A stretch of DNA of 64,000 nt, from contig CANRHC010000001.1 in assembly GCA_947630305.1 (NCBI GenBank), forward strand, positions 520 to 64,519, given 5' to 3'. A model generated the notes under the pieces. That model was not told the DNA's origin. It was given only the letters and a program-made list of their open reading frames with translations, and ran no database searches. Positions 35,571 through 59,501 of the stretch are shown piece after piece. The position numbers and the translations under genes are program-made. Within the stretch, counting starts at the first letter, position 1, and every line of letters starts with the position of its first letter. Origin of the DNA: an uncultured Bacilli bacterium (lineage in GTDB: Bacteria > Bacillota_I > Bacilli_A > RF39 > UBA660).

Positions 35571-36632
35571 TTATGGCAGGTAACCCACAGGGTATGAATA
35601 GTAGTTAGGGTCGTTATTATCCCATTCATTGAGATTGACTAATTCTGTACACTCAATATCCATGGTATGAAGTCCGTTTTCTATTGTATGGGTTACTGTA
35701 TCTACACAGTACCAACCTCTGATAAACTCACGTCTTTCTCCTGTGAAGAAGTCAACTAAAATAGGTGTTCCCCCTCGTACCGTTATCTCCCCTTGTACGC
35801 CGGACAGAGATAATGATGTTCCAACGGGTAAACTGTTTTCTAAAAGTTGGTCTGCTTTTGCTTGAGCGTTTTCCCCATCATCCGCATTTTGGATATCTTC
35901 AAGATAACCCCACCTGTCCGCAGCATATTTATTCCATGCTATGGCGGTTTCAATAGAGCCTTGTTGACTATCCCCTGCGACCTGTTTTTCAACCCTTACC
36001 GCAGTCCATTGATTCTCTAGTGTTTCTGTATAAGTGTAGTTTTCAATAAAAGCAGCGGTTATCCATACATTAGACTGGGATGCGAGGTCGCCATCATGAG
36101 ATACAGTAATTGAGCCATAGTCATCCCATATGTAGTATCTGTATCCTGTGTTCTGAAAGGTTAAATCAAGGGCGGTTGTAATAATTGTTAAGTCTGATAC
36201 GTTCTCCTCAACCCTTGCAGGAATTATGTATTTTGTATCAGCAAAGTTTGGTGGGTCAATGATAGAATACGGTCTATCTCTACAAATACGGTCTGTGAGT
36301 TGAGCAGCGGTTAAATCGGCATATGCCATTCTTCGCTTATTTCTGTTCATGTAGTAAAGTTGGTCGTATGCCTCCACCTCACACCATTGACCGGATTTTT
36401 TTGTTGTAACGATATACCCTTTAAACTGATAATGCTGTTCGTCCAAAATAAAAGCGAGCGTGTTACCAACTTCTGCGGTTATGGTATCCCTCAGAATTGA
36501 ACATGATAACTTGCTCGCTGCGTTTTTCTCTCTTGTAATTGTTATTCTATCCTTGACGACCACGTCAAATACTCGTCCGTCCTGAACCAGTAACAGCCTG
36601 TATCTTGTTTGTCCTGTTTCAAATAAAGCCAT
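35571..36632 (-). CDS. Baseplate hub / late-control-D-like protein (XkdQ position), 353 aa
   Basis: Size and position downstream of the tape measure. Confidence 0.4.
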   Translation of the reverse strand: MALFETGQTRYRLLLVQDGRVFDVVVKDRITITREKNAASKLSCSILRDTITAEVGNTLAFILDEQHYQFKGYIVTTKKSGQWCEVEAYDQLYYMNRNKRRMAYADLTAAQLTDRICRDRPYSIIDPPNFADTKYIIPARVEENVSDLTIITTALDLTFQNTGYRYYIWDDYGSITVSHDGDLASQSNVWITAAFIENYTYTETLENQWTAVRVEKQVAGDSQQGSIETAIAWNKYAADRWGYLEDIQNADDGENAQAKADQLLENSLPVGTSLSLSGVQGEITVRGGTPILVDFFTGERREFIRGWYCVDTVTHTIENGLHTMDIECTELVNLNEWDNNDPNYYSYPVGYLP

Positions 36633-37228
36633 TACTGCGACCTCTTAGCTGCCCATCCACGTGCCACTCTATTCTGTATTAAATGATGTTCAACGGAGGC
36701 ATCTGTTTCAAGATTCATTTGTGGGCAATATTCTATTAGGTTGACAGAAATTGTTAAATCCGAACGGTCTTCGGCATCCTCAACAAAATTCCAGTCCGTC
36801 AGAAGTACTTTCATTGATACATTAATCGTTGAAATCTTTCTCTGTACATCAAAACGTATCGGCTTTCTGTTGACCTTGATATACCATAATTTGTCCGTCC
36901 ATGATTCCCTTATCGGGTCTGCCCCATCAGAATAACCCCACGTAAAAGGGTATTCATCATAAGTAGCCTTAAACTCAAAAGAAATCTTTATTGGGCTGTC
37001 GTATTTAGCTACTGTGAAATTACCCTCATTAGCCAGTCTGATAATTTCTGTATTATCAGGGTATTCATATGTAATTTTTGCAGGAGTTTGTGGTATAAGT
37101 TCTCCGTCTAACCATACCTTATGCGCTCCCTCTAACGAATATTTTTGTGGCATAATTAAACTCCTATCTTGGTACACCAACTCGTTTACCGTCTTGTAGC
37201 AGTCTGTGAAGCATAGATTCCATTTCAC
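36632..37228 (-). CDS. Distal tail protein (XkdP position), 198 aa
   Basis: Immediately follows the tape-measure gene. Confidence 0.35.
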   Translation of the reverse strand: MKWNLCFTDCYKTVNELVYQDRSLIMPQKYSLEGAHKVWLDGELIPQTPAKITYEYPDNTEIIRLANEGNFTVAKYDSPIKISFEFKATYDEYPFTWGYSDGADPIRESWTDKLWYIKVNRKPIRFDVQRKISTINVSMKVLLTDWNFVEDAEDRSDLTISVNLIEYCPQMNLETDASVEHHLIQNRVARGWAAKRSQ

Positions 37229-40200: not shown

Positions 40201-42644
40201 ATAAGTGTAGGAGCGTTCTGAGCAAAGGTTGAACACCATTCAAAGAATGTATCAAAGAATGAATTGATACTATCGGATAACACGTTGCCTGGGTTAAATA
40301 CGCCTAGACCTGCTGCGAGTGCTCCAATCGCTGCGGTGGCGAGTACAATGGATGTAACCCCACCTGCTGTGGTCGTAAAGAATGTTGCAATACCTTTTGC
40401 TGCGGAAGCTATCTGTGTTTTAAAAGTAGTAATAACTCCTTTAATACCCTCAAAAGCTTTACTCAGGATACCGACTTTTTCACTCGCTCCTGAGGTGTCT
40501 ATTAAATCACCGACATTTTCTTTTTTACCACCAAGACCTTTAAAGCCTTTAAGCATAGTGCCAAAGAAATTACCAATACCACTACCAAGACCCTTACCGA
40601 CAGCCTTTGTACCACCGGTTACTCTTTGCTTAGCTATCTGTGCATCATTAATTAACCAGTTACCTGCCCTCTGTAATAAAGTAGGTTTTTGAGTTTTCTT
40701 GTCAGGGTACATCAAGCTTGTTATTCTTGAATAATTAGTATTGGTATTCGGTGTTAAGTCTACTCGCTTGTAATTGTTAGCCAGTCTGTTCTGTGCTTTT
40801 TTGAGAGATTTATTTCTTTTAACAGATTGTGCGACAGAGGAGTCGTAGGATTTACCTGCGCCGAGTTCTAAATCAACAAGTGGTAATTCTTTAGATGTTG
40901 GACTCAGTACTCGTTTTACTTTGTTACTGGACTTTTTAACTCGATTGGTATTTGTAGAAGAAGTAAGTTCAGGGAGTTGAATAACTCTATTTGCTTTATT
41001 AGTCAGATTGGCAGTATTTAATTCTTTTTCAAGGGTAACCGCCTCTCTAAGACCTGAGAGTTGACTATTCTTTATACCAAAAGCTAAATTCTCAAAAGTT
41101 GGTATCTGTAATTTCCCTCTGGTGAAAAAAGCTAAAGTACTGTTTAAAGCTTTAAGTTTATCGTTAAAACTGACTAACACACCTTGTAGGGTCTGTAATA
41201 TTCCAAGACCTAACATGGCTTTAATCATAGCTTTAACCGCTGTAACCACCCCGTCTTTATGGTCTATTAGCCAGTTAAGTACGCCCTCTAACTTATCGAA
41301 AAAGTCAGGAAGCTTTAAGTTAAGCCAGTTACCAAAAGCTATACCTAAATCTTCTACACTAGTAATTGTCTGACCTAGATAAGTTCCGAGTAATCGTCCG
41401 AGTGGGTCGGATATTTGATTGATACCTTTGGAGAAAACTAGACTTACACTAGACCACGTATCCCTTAAATCAAGGAATTTTTCAACGATAGTAACCAGTT
41501 GAGGATTGATGGCATTAAAGAAACCCTCTCTAAATGCCCCACCAGCTTCAACAAAGTTATCGGTCATGTATTTTCTGTTTAGGGCGACCCTTTGGTCTAC
41601 TGCATTAAAGGTTCTCTCATTCTCACTTCTTAACTGACTATAAACCTTTTGGAACCCACCGACTGTTAAACCGATACCATCTCCGATACCGCTTAATAAG
41701 CTTTCAGTAGATGAACCAAAATCGGCTACAACGCCTTTTAGACCTTTATCGTTAAAGAGGGATGCGACTTTATCAATACCGTTTACGACCTCAAGAATAC
41801 CTCTTGCAATAGCAATACTCATATTCTGCATAGTAGCAGTCCATGTTGTAGCAAGTCTTTTAGCATTGCCTTGAAGTTGTAAAGCACCGTTCGTACCCTC
41901 TCGCATAGCCTTTTCAACGGTATCCAAGAAGTCTTTAGCGGTTATATCTTTATTTGTTAAAGCGGTTTGGACGTCCTCGGCAGCCTGTCCTGTGGCAGTA
42001 GCGTATATTTGAACAGGATTGATACCGGCAGCAAAGAGTCTGTTTAAGTACCGCATTTCAACCGTACCCTTTGTTCTCATCTTTGCTATGGCATCCATGA
42101 CAGATTCAAACTGTTCATTCGTACCCTTACCATACGTTGATACAGCGTCCATCCATATCTTAACGGAGTCAACCGCCTCTCCTGCCTGCATGCCACGTAA
42201 AACAAAATTCTGAACACCTTTAGCTGCCACATCAAGGGCATAAGGTGTTCCCTTAGTAGCGGTCTTTAATTCTTCTAACGACCTGCTCGCAGCGTTCGTA
42301 TCATTCGTTATGAGTTCCATTTTCTGCGAGAACAAGTCCATTGTATCGGCACGTTGGATGGCTCTGTCTAAATTAGAGGTAAACAGATTTAAAATACTGT
42401 TGACTAATTTAAAGCCACCAAAGATACCGATTGTAGTTCTAACAGTCCGACCTAAACTGCCAAAAACTGTATTTGATGATGATACATTACGGTTTAAACT
42501 GTTCAGATAAGCACTCGTTGAATTAGTGTTATTACCTAAACTGTTTAAACCATTTTTTAAGGAGTTCACTTGTTTTTGTAAGGCGTTCATAGCAGTACTG
42601 GCAGCGTTACGTGCGGTAATGCTAAAACTTAATTGATTAGCCAT
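37164..42644 (-). CDS. Tail tape-measure protein with C-terminal M23 peptidase and lytic transglycosylase (SLT) domains, 1826 aa
   Basis: Long Ala/Gly-rich repetitive helical core. HAGMDIAAGTGTP...GSTGNSTGPHLHFE gives the M23 HxxxD...HxH. ...GNPNAINLTDSNAAAGHPSQGLLQ... is SLT-like. AGGAGG RBS. Confidence 0.8.
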   Translation of the reverse strand: MANQLSFSITARNAASTAMNALQKQVNSLKNGLNSLGNNTNSTSAYLNSLNRNVSSSNTVFGSLGRTVRTTIGIFGGFKLVNSILNLFTSNLDRAIQRADTMDLFSQKMELITNDTNAASRSLEELKTATKGTPYALDVAAKGVQNFVLRGMQAGEAVDSVKIWMDAVSTYGKGTNEQFESVMDAIAKMRTKGTVEMRYLNRLFAAGINPVQIYATATGQAAEDVQTALTNKDITAKDFLDTVEKAMREGTNGALQLQGNAKRLATTWTATMQNMSIAIARGILEVVNGIDKVASLFNDKGLKGVVADFGSSTESLLSGIGDGIGLTVGGFQKVYSQLRSENERTFNAVDQRVALNRKYMTDNFVEAGGAFREGFFNAINPQLVTIVEKFLDLRDTWSSVSLVFSKGINQISDPLGRLLGTYLGQTITSVEDLGIAFGNWLNLKLPDFFDKLEGVLNWLIDHKDGVVTAVKAMIKAMLGLGILQTLQGVLVSFNDKLKALNSTLAFFTRGKLQIPTFENLAFGIKNSQLSGLREAVTLEKELNTANLTNKANRVIQLPELTSSTNTNRVKKSSNKVKRVLSPTSKELPLVDLELGAGKSYDSSVAQSVKRNKSLKKAQNRLANNYKRVDLTPNTNTNYSRITSLMYPDKKTQKPTLLQRAGNWLINDAQIAKQRVTGGTKAVGKGLGSGIGNFFGTMLKGFKGLGGKKENVGDLIDTSGASEKVGILSKAFEGIKGVITTFKTQIASAAKGIATFFTTTAGGVTSIVLATAAIGALAAGLGVFNPGNVLSDSINSFFDTFFEWCSTFAQNAPTLIQSFVDGLIKNLPQLVSQGVNLLLSLVNGIMTGIPKLLTVGVSVLFALIGGIAQVLPDLVQQGFSAIGQFIAGIIQNLPNVLAAGWELLQTIVTGILYNLPIIIASGIKLVWSLISGIGSMVGQVGDAVIRLVSDGWNYLVSHPEQVGEAIWNACMSILNALNEGLWKAADILGISGFLEDVLQLQRPEGAIEKGKEAAENAVNGANTALQTKGIDLQNAFQQANIDQANADAANAGQQMGQNVTQGVDQAMADTAVDASQAGVDTGTNYVDGITQGVSDSSGNVDTALSSVGSEGMAQLTVNFNGEQVQQAAGGLIDTLTRIINERSLDVAMAMASMANNSMITLAASFQALPEDIPNAISVAMTAVVDSVNMKVQEICTNVKNNLTAAKTEADVATQQLSTAIQNNFLAATTSVNASLEQMKTDVYARYEELRAGVIEKLGAIESAQTTFSTEHMATFQSNMQTYEGYILADYQSFCDQLKGKMDDLVRHSLQTGKDMMTEMANGISSNMQKVLDVASDLVKKLKETFEKGLGVHSPSRYTYWLGQMLLAGLMNGMSPEAVQKFIDSVVGDMQNAFNNGKYQAPNADEAVNFLSDQGTLDLIGRVSKVDTKDMNPQQIAYPLIGTMGSISSPFGRRSSPGGIGSTNHAGMDIAAGTGTPIASALAGTVTTAGWYGGYGNAVVVDSGNGLSIVYGHMSQVLSSVGQVVQKGQQIGLVGSTGNSTGPHLHFEMRNNGDPFDPAPYLGGAAVSGVGNTLAALLQMAYNKKHGIITGSNVMYNPSAGAAQWSSVVLQALAMLGQPASLLNYVLYAIERESSGNPNAINLTDSNAAAGHPSQGLLQTIPSTFAAYRNPNLANSLTDPLANIYAGLNYMIQRYGGIEQVVVPRMNSPRGWYGYAVGTRYVPFDMPAIIHQGEAIIPASQNPYSNSGGDYLGDLIANAMNGDGLNALSFDTSGMTSGNTNNSTTNNNLNNTFNITNSSDVDSDRSISEMESMLHRLLQDGKRVGVPR

Positions 42645-42663: not shown

Positions 42664-43310
42664 AAGCTATTTCTTATTAGCTTGTTTTTCTTTTTCGCTA
42701 AAATATTCAATAGCTGATAACATAACCATCTTATCTGTGGTATTTACTTTTTTTCTATACTCGGATGGCAGTATTCCATGTCTGTAAAAACACCACCCCA
42801 TGAGCATTAAATCTGTATTGTTACCAGCCTTTAGTTGTTTTTTAACAATTCAGACTTTCTCTGATTGTCATTCATAGCCCCTTCTATATCATCAAGACCT
42901 GATACCTCAATAACCTTGAGTGCGAGTGCTTGTAACTCACCTGCGTTTAACATTTTTCTTAAAAGCTTTGTTTCACTTCTAACGCCATAAGTGTTTTGAA
43001 GTCCGCTGTCTTTTAAGTTAGGAAATACAACGCCACGTGCGGTAATTCCAAGTAAATATTTATTGTCATCAAAGATTTCATTAATAACGCCTGTACGTCT
43101 ATTTTCTTTAGTATCAGTACAGGATTCTCTGATTAACGCATCCTCATCGGCACTTAAAGGTTTAATCGTCCATTCAATCGGGTTTCCGTCCCCGTCTGTA
43201 AAATTATCAGAGGCTACATACTGTACGGTTTCACTTTCCTTTTTGTTTTCTTTATAGAAAAATGAAATATCTATTACATCTTTTCTTTCGTCTATATTTT
43301 TTACTGACAT
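42664..43310 (-). CDS. Tail assembly chaperone, predicted -1 frameshift extension product (about 218 aa)
   Basis: Slippery A_AAA_AAC at 42843-42837 (minus strand). The -1 frame stays open 60 codons (KQLKAGNNTDLMLMGWCFYRHGILPSEYRKKVNTTDKMVMLSAIEYFSEKEKQANKK) to a TAG at 42666-42664, 20 nt before the tape-measure ATG. Confidence 0.5.
42831..43310 (-). CDS. Tail assembly chaperone (XkdN-like), 159 aa, zero-frame product
   Basis: Lies between the tube gene and the tape-measure gene. Ends ...LLKNN* on the heptamer A_AAA_AAC. Confidence 0.55.
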   Translation of the reverse strand: MSVKNIDERKDVIDISFFYKENKKESETVQYVASDNFTDGDGNPIEWTIKPLSADEDALIRESCTDTKENRRTGVINEIFDDNKYLLGITARGVVFPNLKDSGLQNTYGVRSETKLLRKMLNAGELQALALKVIEVSGLDDIEGAMNDNQRKSELLKNN

Positions 43311-43377: not shown

Positions 43378-43860
43378 TTAATCTTCAAATAGACCGTCTA
43401 ATTCTCTAAATTCTGTATCAACGATATAATCTTCAAAAGTGAAAGACACATCTTCTTCAAGGATTGAAGAATCAGCATCTAATTTTGCTAAAATCATTTC
43501 ATCAAAGTTACAATCACGTAAAACAATAATTTGTTTACCAGTATGGGTTGTTTTATCTTCGTTGGTGATTGTCATATCAAAGTAAAAATCTTCACCGGTA
43601 TCTTTATATTGTTCAGCCAGTTTTCTGAATGTACTGTCTACATAATAAAGAGTCATAGTACCGGAATATGTTTCACCAGTTTTACGGTTACCCTTACCAC
43701 GTTTACCAAGAATTGGAACCTGCTCCTTTTCAAAAGAGATGGTGGTTTCAATATTCTTAGCGTGCATAACGGTCATAACCCGACCATCAGGAAGGGTAGC
43801 CTTTATCATCCCCTGCTCACCGGATAATATATCCCGTGCATCTAAAATTGATTGTGCCAT
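43378..43860 (-). CDS. Tail tube protein (XkdM-like), 160 aa
   Basis: Size and position directly downstream of the sheath gene. AGGAGG RBS. Confidence 0.55.
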   Translation of the reverse strand: MAQSILDARDILSGEQGMIKATLPDGRVMTVMHAKNIETTISFEKEQVPILGKRGKGNRKTGETYSGTMTLYYVDSTFRKLAEQYKDTGEDFYFDMTITNEDKTTHTGKQIIVLRDCNFDEMILAKLDADSSILEEDVSFTFEDYIVDTEFRELDGLFED

Positions 43861-58995: not shown

Positions 58996-59073
58996 TGGTG
59001 ACGGTGCAGGGATTCGAACCCATGGAATACTACATTGAAAGCGTAGTGTCTTAAGCCTCTTGACTACACCGCC
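58996..59073 (-). tRNA. tRNA, probable anticodon TTC (Glu), CCA encoded
   Basis: Minus strand reads GGCGGTGTAGTCAAGAGGC...CTACG-CTTTCAA-TGTAG...GGGTTCGAATCCC...CACCGTCACCA. Acceptor stem 7 bp with one G-U. The T-stem has two mismatches. Confidence 0.5.
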
Positions 59074-59093
59074 ATAATCACTCAATTAATATC

Positions 59094-59164
59094 CGGCGGT
59101 GGAAGGAATCGAACCTACACCTCATGATTAACTGTCATGTGTTCGTACCAGTAACTACACCGCC
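59094..59164 (-). tRNA. tRNA-Asn (GTT)
   Basis: GGCGGTG acceptor stem. CATGA-CAGTTAA-TCATG anticodon arm. GTAGGTTCGATTCCTTC T-arm. CACCGCC-G 3' end. Confidence 0.75.
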
Positions 59165-59300
59165 ATAATCACTCAATTAATATCAAAGGCTCTTTTGAAC
59201 AGAGAGCTAACTGTACAAAAAAGAAGTTAATAAGTCGTCCTGTGTCCTATCCTTGTATCAATTTCATTTGCCCTTTTGAAAAGAGGACTAACTTTTCATT

Positions 59301-59391
59301 TGGCAGGAGAAGTAGGATTCGAACCCACGCATCATGTTACTGACCTATCTGTTTTCAAAACAGACCTCTTAAACCACTTGAGTATTCTCCT
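59301..59391 (-). tRNA. tRNA-Ser (TGA), type II with long variable arm, CCA encoded
   Basis: AGGAGAA/TTCTCCT acceptor. CTGTT-TTTGAAA-AACAG anticodon arm. Long extra arm. GGGTTCGAATCC T-loop. Confidence 0.75.
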
Positions 59392-59412
59392 ATATAAATA
59401 AGAAAGGAATTT

Positions 59413-59501
59413 TGGTACTGGAGATGGGATTCGAACCCATATGACAAATTAATATCAGAGAATTTTAAGTCCTCTATGTATTCCAGTTCCATCACTCCAG
59501 T
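59413..59501 (-). tRNA. tRNA-Leu (TAA), type II, CCA encoded
   Basis: ACTGGAG/CTCCAGT acceptor. GAGGA-CTTAAAA-TTCTC anticodon arm. Long variable arm. GGGTTCGAATCCC T-loop. Confidence 0.7.

Follow-up and report, generated by a model that had tools for sequence, protein, structure and literature searches.

A conserved slippery heptamer and an overlapping −1 frame point to a programmed ribosomal frameshift in the XkdN-family tail assembly chaperone gene of a contractile-tail phage

What is encoded in the short interval that separates a tail assembly chaperone gene from the tape-measure gene in a phage with a contractile tail? The question is raised by a stretch of 64,000 nucleotides (nt), referred to here as the window, from an uncultured Bacilli bacterium (assembly GCA_947630305.1, contig CANRHC010000001.1, positions 520 to 64,519 of the forward strand). 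The window appears to hold most of a myovirus genome of ~65 kb with a G+C content of 35%, and its structural genes lie on the minus strand. On that strand a chaperone gene of the XkdN family (43310-42831) is followed by a gap of 186 nt between its stop codon and the ATG of the tape-measure gene at 42644. An earlier note on this DNA had proposed that the gap is an extension of the chaperone reached by a frameshift like that of the lambda G/GT pair. The analysis reported here supports this proposal through a conserved heptamer, selection acting in the −1 frame, the lack of a ribosome binding site (RBS) proper to the extension and an in-frame fusion of both parts in Streptococcus phage EJ-1. The locus very probably encodes a programmed −1 ribosomal frameshift of the tail-assembly-chaperone type, which would be the counterpart, in a contractile-tail phage, of lambda G/GT and P2 E/E+E'; that the shift is made by the ribosome is what we infer from the sequences compared.

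Read directly on the minus strand, the chaperone gene ends with ...GAA TTG TTA AAA AAC AAC TAA. The slippery heptamer A_AAA_AAC lies at 42843-42837 in the X_XXY_YYZ phase and is separated by 3 nt, one codon, from the stop codon TAA at 42833-42831. Six-frame translation reveals a TGA at 42852-42850 that closes the −1 frame upstream of the heptamer; from there the frame is open for 60 codons, stop to stop (42849..42670; IVKKQLKAGNN...QANKK). The +1 frame is shut after 6 codons, as it is in nearly all of the relatives described below. Because the −1 frame is closed by this TGA and the zero frame by the TAA, a productive shift is confined to the 16-nt overlap of the two frames, which holds the heptamer. 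Following the shift, base 42837 being read twice, the −1 extension would comprise 56 codons (QLKAGNNTDLMLMGWCFYRHGILPSEYRKKVNTTDKMVMLSAIEYFSEKEKQANKK) and a TAG at 42669-42667 (42837-42667 in all). This TAG is found 11 nt before the AGGAGG of the tape-measure RBS (42655-42650) and 22 nt before the tape-measure ATG. The earlier note had the position and the phase of the heptamer right; its distance of six nt to the stop runs to the end of AAC AAC and has to be replaced by 3 nt, its extension of 60 codons is correct from stop to stop whereas only 56 are added after the shift, and its TAG at 42666-42664, 20 nt before the RBS and ATG, was placed 3 nt off. The junction it gave as ...KN/KQLK... also has to be amended, since canonical tandem slippage gives ...ELLKN-QLKAGNN....

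The predicted fusion, ...SELLKN-QLKAGNNTDLMLMGWCFYRHGILPSEYRKKVNTTDKMVMLSAIEYFSEKEKQANKK, would have 158 + 56 = 214 amino acids (aa), a mass of 24.4 kDa, within the 24-25 kDa announced in the earlier note, and an isoelectric point (pI) of 5.5. The computed values for its parts differ, with 17.9 kDa and a pI of 4.8 for the short form and a pI of 9.4 for the extension, which is basic. Two ATG codons are present inside the −1 frame, at 42809-42807 and 42803-42801 (minus strand). A tryptic peptide of the predicted fusion, AGNNTDLMLMGWCFYR, begins upstream of both of them, and digestion with Glu-C would give the junction peptide LLKNQLKAGNNTDLMLMGWCFYRHGILPSE.

An open frame of this length is rarely obtained by chance. 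In 100,000 shuffles of the 193 nt from the heptamer to the tape-measure start, at least 56 open codons were found in 0.4% of cases, and an in-phase XXXYYYZ motif is present within the last 10 codons of 5 of the 78 long open reading frames (ORFs) of the window. The combination of open run and heptamer is thus expected by chance in the order of 3 in 10,000 per gene, comparative evidence aside. The claim that an open frame starting at a slippery heptamer is improbable by chance is sustained by these shuffles and by the recurrence of the arrangement in every relative examined.

The gene that carries the heptamer is a genuine member of the XkdN family PF08890. Its product of 159 aa (17.9 kDa; ATG at 43310, stop at 42833-42831) matches Phage_TAC_5 (PF08890) over residues 16-141 with 116.1 bits, for a cut-off of 27, and an E-value of 1.4e-33; it also matches PHROG 389, 'tail protein XkdN-like', with an E-value of 2.8e-35. 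The start codon is preceded by a Shine-Dalgarno-like AAAGGA (43326-43321) with a duplex energy of −8.4 kcal/mol. The tape-measure gene (42644-37164, minus strand) encodes 1826 aa with matches to PF20155 (TMP_3), Peptidase_M23 and SLT, and its Shine-Dalgarno duplex energy is −10.2 kcal/mol. Pfam therefore bears out the order of XkdN-like chaperone, gap and 1826-aa tape measure put forward in the earlier note. As the chaperone gene directly follows a tail tube gene, the chaperone and its putative extension occupy the position between tube and tape-measure genes that characterizes the G/GT arrangement.

To what extent are these features conserved? Homologues of the chaperone form a graded metagenomic series, from 86% down to 50% identical. 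Eleven loci were fetched for eight homologues, corresponding to nine distinct sequences (chaperones 86-52% identical, with synonymous sites near saturation), and the overall comparison covered 35 loci (10 close loci, 9 public Firmicute myophages and 16 loci from IMG/VR), or about 26 distinct sequences. Every close locus carries an in-phase AAAAAAC, replaced by AAAAAAG in the most distant one (L026), and a single codon always separates the heptamer from the stop. The open −1 frame spans 58-69 codons (136 in L026) and ends 17-31 nt before the tape-measure ATG, and the 16-nt overlap of the two frames is shared by 8 of the 9 distinct related loci. The extension peptides of the close loci align with few gaps around the consensus KKQLKAGN..DL.LMGWCFYKHGILP.EYRK..TDK..MLSA..YFS; written with its alternative residues, the consensus reads QLKAGN.DL.LMG[WYF]CFYK[HYF]GILP.EY.K....DK..MLSA..YF and is followed by an acidic part and then by a basic tail.

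The pattern of substitutions indicates in which frame the gap is read. When the window is compared with the eight related loci below saturation, the proportion of non-synonymous differences in the extension (pN) is 0.14-0.25 and that of synonymous differences (pS) 0.43-0.75, giving a ratio of non-synonymous to synonymous substitution rates (dN/dS) of about 0.1-0.2 (0.06-0.24 with pN taken as 0.14-0.20); the chaperone body is in a similar range. Variable columns of the extension number 34, 30 and 52 at the first, second and third codon positions, respectively. The low dN/dS and the variability of third positions show that the gap codes for protein in the −1 frame, in which the extension is under purifying selection.

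The heptamer itself is constrained at the nucleotide level. Only 10 of 148 third codon positions of the chaperone gene are invariant among ten sequences, and the six A's of the heptamer are identical in all ten, both wobble positions being frozen. The A-run was compared with the sequences anchored on the heptamer, since L026 is misplaced by one codon at the very end of the MAFFT protein alignment. The codon before the heptamer varies (TTA, CTA, ATA, GCA or GTA, encoding L, I, A or V) and its final A is always kept. The zero-frame stop is maintained as well, because the Leu codon of the extension that overlaps it is always NTA in the close loci.

Two further observations were made on the close loci. 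The most divergent of them, L026 (2940-3000), carries A_AAA_AAG followed directly by a strong hairpin (−20 kcal/mol over 45 nt), unlike the other loci, and its −1 frame is already open 232 nt upstream of the site. Mosaic joints are present in two pairs of loci. Between L022 and L023, identity is 92-100% over the stretch that runs from the tube gene up to the heptamer (97-100% across the chaperone gene) and drops to ~80% in the extension; conversely, L019 and L021 are ~83% identical in the chaperone body and 100% identical from the heptamer through most of the extension. In both pairs the joint coincides with the heptamer, near nt 455-470 of the chaperone gene. These alignments suggest that modules recombine at the conserved sequence of the slippery site, which would serve as a boundary between them.

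The arrangement extends to distant relatives. When the conceptual fusion was used as a tblastn query against 50,697 phage records, 50 of them proved to hold XkdN-type chaperones, and nine representative phages were examined together with 16 loci from IMG/VR: Clostridioides phages phiC2, phiCDKH02 and phiCD508, Clostridium perfringens phage CPAS-15, Geobacillus phage phiOH2, Lactobacillus phage phiAQ113, Sporosarcina phage Lietuvens and Streptococcus phages MismyG and EJ-1. The chaperone gene ends with GCA AAA AAC TAA in phiC2, phiCDKH02, CPAS-15, phiOH2, phiAQ113, Lietuvens and the IMG/VR group, with ATA AAA AAC TAA in phiCD508 and with GCA AAA AAC GAC TAG in MismyG. In these relatives the heptamer is in phase, and the −1 frame continues without a stop for 56-92 codons until the tape-measure gene or the next tail gene is reached. 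Stop codons in the −1 frame of homologous phages, which the earlier note had named as the sign to look for against a shift, were found in none of the relatives. The 17 conceptual fusions align colinearly across the junction; K157 is invariant and N158 nearly so, and P182 of the extension is invariant. Most of the distant extensions have no Met near the N-terminus, and Met is missing altogether from those of phiC2, phiAQ113, CPAS-15 and the IMG/VR group, which excludes their ATG-initiated translation as free-standing proteins.

The two-frame arrangement is kept in all relatives examined with the exception of EJ-1, in which the parts are fused in frame. ORF55 of this phage (L029, NC_005294.1 30163-30759) encodes 198 aa that run through both parts without a change of frame (...VEESKKRLEDGDAELSYAYYCLHQF...). 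In the closely related MismyG (L031), frame 0 gives ...VEEAKND followed by a stop and frame −1 gives SKKRLEDGDAELSYAYYCLHQF.... Comparison of the EJ-1 protein with the MismyG nucleotides suggests that the frames were joined in EJ-1 by one extra A located 7 nt upstream of the A6 run. ORF55 is either a natural variant making the long form only or an error in the 2004 record; if the fusion is real, no short form would be made. In both cases, EJ-1 displays the long product as a single polypeptide.

Public annotation does not reflect this arrangement. None of the records L028 and L030-L036 (phiC2, phiCDKH02, MismyG, phiOH2, phiAQ113, CPAS-15, phiCD508 and Lietuvens) carries a frameshift annotation, and the extension is either left blank or entered as a separate hypothetical protein (for example phiCD508 gp58 and CPAS15_0065). 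The chaperone itself is labelled 'portal protein' in phiCDKH02 and 'XkdM' in CPD4. Among the PHROGs, five small families of unknown function (5646, 20560, 10943, 28231 and 33439) are hit by the phiC2 and MismyG extensions, and none by the extension of the window. The latter has no match in Pfam at E-values up to 10, and neither the 214-aa fusion nor the phiC2 extension has one in NCBIfam. A word-indexed protein search with the extension returned only an identical 44-aa ORF, and an exhaustive HMMER search of 1.8 billion representatives returned two weak matches, a 51-aa ORF and a doubtful 665-aa protein; this weak yield is explained by a query of 60 aa, too short for a database of this size. 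A nucleotide search of the phage collection revealed a weak match of the tube gene to Brevibacillus phages and no close cultured relatives. A profile search of genome contigs with the chaperone alignment gave no relatives, and a broader alignment offered no sufficiently conserved block for such a search. The fusion modelled with AlphaFold as a single sequence gave an unusable prediction (predicted local distance difference test score of 35).

Could the conserved peptide be produced without a frameshift? A separate small gene of 44-46 aa, starting from its own ATG at 42807 or 42801 and comparable to phiCD508 gp58 or CPAS15_0065, would account for the 44-aa ORF of identical sequence present in public protein sets (P0001), for the ORFs of 45-51 aa that gene callers predict in L019-L021, L025 and L026, and for the small hypothetical proteins shown at this position in phage records; a Met is moreover present at about the same place in 10 of 10 close loci. 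The internal ATGs that gene callers use for ORFs of 46 or 44 aa were nevertheless judged not to be real starts, and the extension appears to lack a translation start of its own. In the window, their Shine-Dalgarno duplex energies are −4.7 and +0.4 kcal/mol, against −8.4 to −12.5 kcal/mol at the neighbouring genes with a recognisable Shine-Dalgarno sequence; among the ten sequences they range from +0.6 to −4.7 kcal/mol in nine and reach −6.5 in L026. By comparison, the chaperone and tape-measure starts are strong in every locus (−8.2 to −12.0 kcal/mol), and most other genes of the window are in the range of −7 to −12.5 kcal/mol. Conservation as −1-frame protein includes the 11-13 codons that separate the Met from the heptamer, and in most loci the −1 frame has been open for just a few codons when the heptamer is reached. 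A small gene would not require frozen wobble bases in the heptamer, its Met is missing from the distant extensions named above or is internal or C-terminal only, and EJ-1 carries both parts fused in frame; independent initiation is therefore a very unlikely source of the extension. The opposite view, that the gene is a single ORF of 214 aa like the 198-aa EJ-1 ORF55, which spans both parts, and that it is broken in the window by an assembly or sequencing error or by a recent inactivating mutation, might be entertained since homopolymer runs are error-prone. It can be excluded with near certainty because 10 close loci, 16 contigs from IMG/VR and 8 phage genomes, which stem from independent assemblies and samples or from cultured phages, all show the same break and have the zero-frame stop 0-3 nt past the heptamer. 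The NTA form of the overlapping Leu codon speaks for a stop that is maintained, and the A that joins the frames of EJ-1 lies upstream of the run and not within it, which makes EJ-1 the exception.

The same fusion could also arise from transcriptional slippage, if RNA polymerase added one A in the A6 run so that a fraction of the mRNAs encoded both parts in a single frame. Efficient slippage of bacterial RNA polymerase needs about 8-9 or more A or T, and six give very little. The six-A homopolymer is invariant in all relatives, the conserved RNA structure typical of stimulated ribosomal frameshifting is missing, and some bacteria and insertion sequence (IS) elements rely on transcriptional slippage to express genes (PMC5009743). 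Against this, the run is exactly six A's in every sequence, below this length, and it never becomes A7 or A8 in ~19 distinct sequences, although a seventh A would close neither frame. It is always followed by C (once by G), which maintains the exact X_XXY_YYZ motif in the right phase for tandem tRNA re-pairing. A_AAA_AAC is, furthermore, already documented as a ribosomal shift site, including for tail-chaperone g-t expression in the haloarchaeal virus HCTV-2 (PMC5009743). As the run is short, never lengthens and is kept in the exact X_XXY_YYZ form, transcriptional slippage is disfavoured and given only a slim chance.

A number of points weigh against a programmed ribosomal frameshift and have to be set beside the evidence for it. 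RNAalifold detected no conserved RNA structure within 90 nt downstream of the heptamer in nine sequences (−1.57 kcal/mol, five long-range pairs), nothing near threshold was found at the site with Rfam, and no conserved Shine-Dalgarno-like element is present upstream of the heptamer in the related loci. In E. coli, A_AAA_AAC is reported to be much less shift-prone than A_AAA_AAG (PMC5009743), and the efficiency of the shift may therefore be low. Since a Met is found 11-13 codons into the extension in all close relatives, weak independent initiation is formally possible there, and the A6 run could in principle yield the same product through slippage of RNA polymerase. Profiles built from 17 chaperone and extension sequences reached probabilities of only 0.2% and 0.4% against lambda G and T in hhalign, that is, no similarity. 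In the papers searched, we found no report of a fusion protein or of −1-frame footprints for any member of the XkdN family, and no description of a frameshift for XkdN-type chaperones specifically.

How would the shift operate in the apparent absence of stimulators? The pseudoknot or stem-loop that the earlier note had suggested looking for downstream of the heptamer did not appear as a conserved structure; single-sequence folds of the 40-90 nt after the heptamer differ between loci, and a strong hairpin abuts the site in L026 only. The site therefore lacks the Shine-Dalgarno-like element about 10 nt upstream and the conserved hairpin or pseudoknot 5-9 nt downstream that mark stimulated −1 frameshifts of the dnaX or IS type, and the sole conserved signal in its vicinity is the zero-frame stop 0-3 nt downstream. 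As no conserved stimulator was found, a low and unstimulated shift rate like that of lambda G/GT would be expected. Under the favoured explanation, a programmed ribosomal frameshift, most ribosomes would read the chaperone gene to its TAA and release the acidic protein of 159 aa. A minority would slip by −1 while the P site holds tRNA-Lys on AAA and the A site tRNA-Asn on AAC, both tRNAs re-pairing on AAA AAA, and would go on with CAA CTA AAG... for 56 codons. The product would be the 214-aa fusion with its basic, 'T-like' C-terminal extension, ending 22 nt before the tape-measure start.

The roles of the two products may be proposed by analogy with lambda. There, gpG forms a coat on the tape measure protein and the T part of gpGT brings in the tail tube protein; the two are made at a gpG:gpGT ratio of about 30:1 and both chaperones are absent from virions (PMC5009743). 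Transferred to this phage, the scheme would assign the coating of the tape measure protein to the 'G-like' N-terminal part that both forms share; the rare extension would bring in the tube protein, allowing first the tube and then the sheath to polymerise around the tape measure, and neither form would remain in the virion. The tube protein is a likely binding partner of the extension, as gpV is in lambda. In phage phiCD508, virion mass spectrometry found both the XkdN-like gp57 and the small gp58 missing (PMC11948020), which fits a chaperone role.

The likeness to lambda lies in the arrangement. Both systems have two overlapping frames between the tube and tape-measure genes, the second at −1 and without a start of its own, a heptamer at the end of the first ORF and an extension that stops just before the tape-measure gene; the lambda frameshift, too, needs no downstream RNA stimulator. 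They differ in the heptamer, which is G_GGA_AAG in lambda and A_AAA_AAC here, in the length of the extension (~140 aa in lambda and 56 aa here) and in the tail, which is contractile here with sheath and tube, so that the presumed partner is a tube protein of the DUF2001 family. As the proteins show no similarity to lambda G and T, the functional analogy rests on position and architecture. To judge from the sequences, mechanism and architecture are the same as in lambda, in a different protein family, PF08890. Closer in tail type are P2 gpE/gpE+E' and Mu, which have frameshifted chaperone pairs between tube and tape-measure genes in myoviruses; they belong to different protein families and to proteobacterial phages, and Mu is reported to use a −2 shift. 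A further likeness is with the XkdN-like chaperones of PBSX-type elements and Firmicute myophages, represented here by phiCD508 gp57 + gp58, phiC2 p16, CPAS-15 0064 + 0065 and EJ-1 ORF55, which have A_AAA_AAC at the gene end, a homologous −1 extension and the same gene order. Most of this family has AAC TAA at the gene end, whereas the window (AAC AAC TAA), its close relatives and MismyG have one extra codon. The same heptamer directs the −1 frameshift of IS1 insA-insB', which makes a low level of fusion without a strong stimulator; IS1 differs in encoding a transposase, and its proteins are unrelated to tail chaperones. As PMC2628397 summarizes Xu et al. (2004), tailed dsDNA phages conserve a frameshift in the interval from the major tail gene to the tape-measure gene, and the contractile-tail phages Mu, FluMu and P2 are grouped with lambda in this respect.

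The surrounding genes of the minus strand form the rest of the tail module. They comprise a tail terminator (46121-45693; PF20765), a sheath (45632-43923; PF04984, PF17482, PF22671 and PF17481) and a tail tube protein of 160 aa (43860-43378; PF09393, E-value 6.7e-39; DUF2001 family) encoded directly upstream of the chaperone gene. Between the tube stop at 43378 and the chaperone ATG at 43310, a terminator-like hairpin is found at 43373-43343 (minus strand), with the sequence AGGCACTC-TTAAC-GGGTGTCT followed by TTTTTATTTTC. A hairpin with a T-run occupies the same place in 10 of 10 related loci, the letters of the stem varying and its pairing being kept. It looks like a conserved partial terminator that would lower the expression of chaperone and tape measure relative to that of sheath and tube. 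No promoter or terminator was found inside the 186-nt gap. The C-terminal region of the tape measure contains an M23 peptidase (residues 1462-1556) and an SLT lytic transglycosylase (residues 1620-1713), both cell-wall-degrading, a combination that the relatives share. An ORF at 36632-37228 (minus strand; GTG start as listed) without a Pfam match overlaps the end of the tape-measure gene by 65 nt.

The genome also carries four tRNA genes, clustered at 58996-59501 on the minus strand, for Glu(ttc), Asn(gtt), Ser(tga) and Leu(taa). Two of them correspond to codons of the slippery site: tRNA-Asn(GUU), at 59093-59165, reads the AAC codon in the A site of the heptamer, and tRNA-Leu(UAA), at 59413-59501, reads the TTA that supplies its first A. 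The cluster is most likely a plain supplementation of codon usage in an AT-rich phage. That the phage tRNAs set the ratio of short to long product independently of the host tRNA pool or its modification (for example in the anticodon loop), with A_AAA_AAC and the stop serving in addition as a recombination joint between the chaperone body and the module of extension and tape measure, is a long shot.

The shift proposed here is what a phage biologist would predict for the XkdN family, and its value lies in annotation rather than in discovery; the understanding of the process is unchanged and the surprise low, because the frameshift has been seen as conserved in long-tailed phages since 2004. For this phage, the gap, or the spurious 44-aa 'hypothetical protein' called in it, would become the C-terminal domain of a 214-aa chaperone, and the tail module would be completed. 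For the family PF08890, which is widespread in Firmicute myophages, including the phages of Clostridioides difficile examined here, and shares its name with XkdN of PBSX, the phage and metagenomic loci examined point to an essentially invariant A_AAA_AAC at the stop and a homologous extension of ~55-65 residues. The annotation of this genome and of the whole family would be corrected accordingly, and the site would offer a clean target for the engineering of tail assembly.

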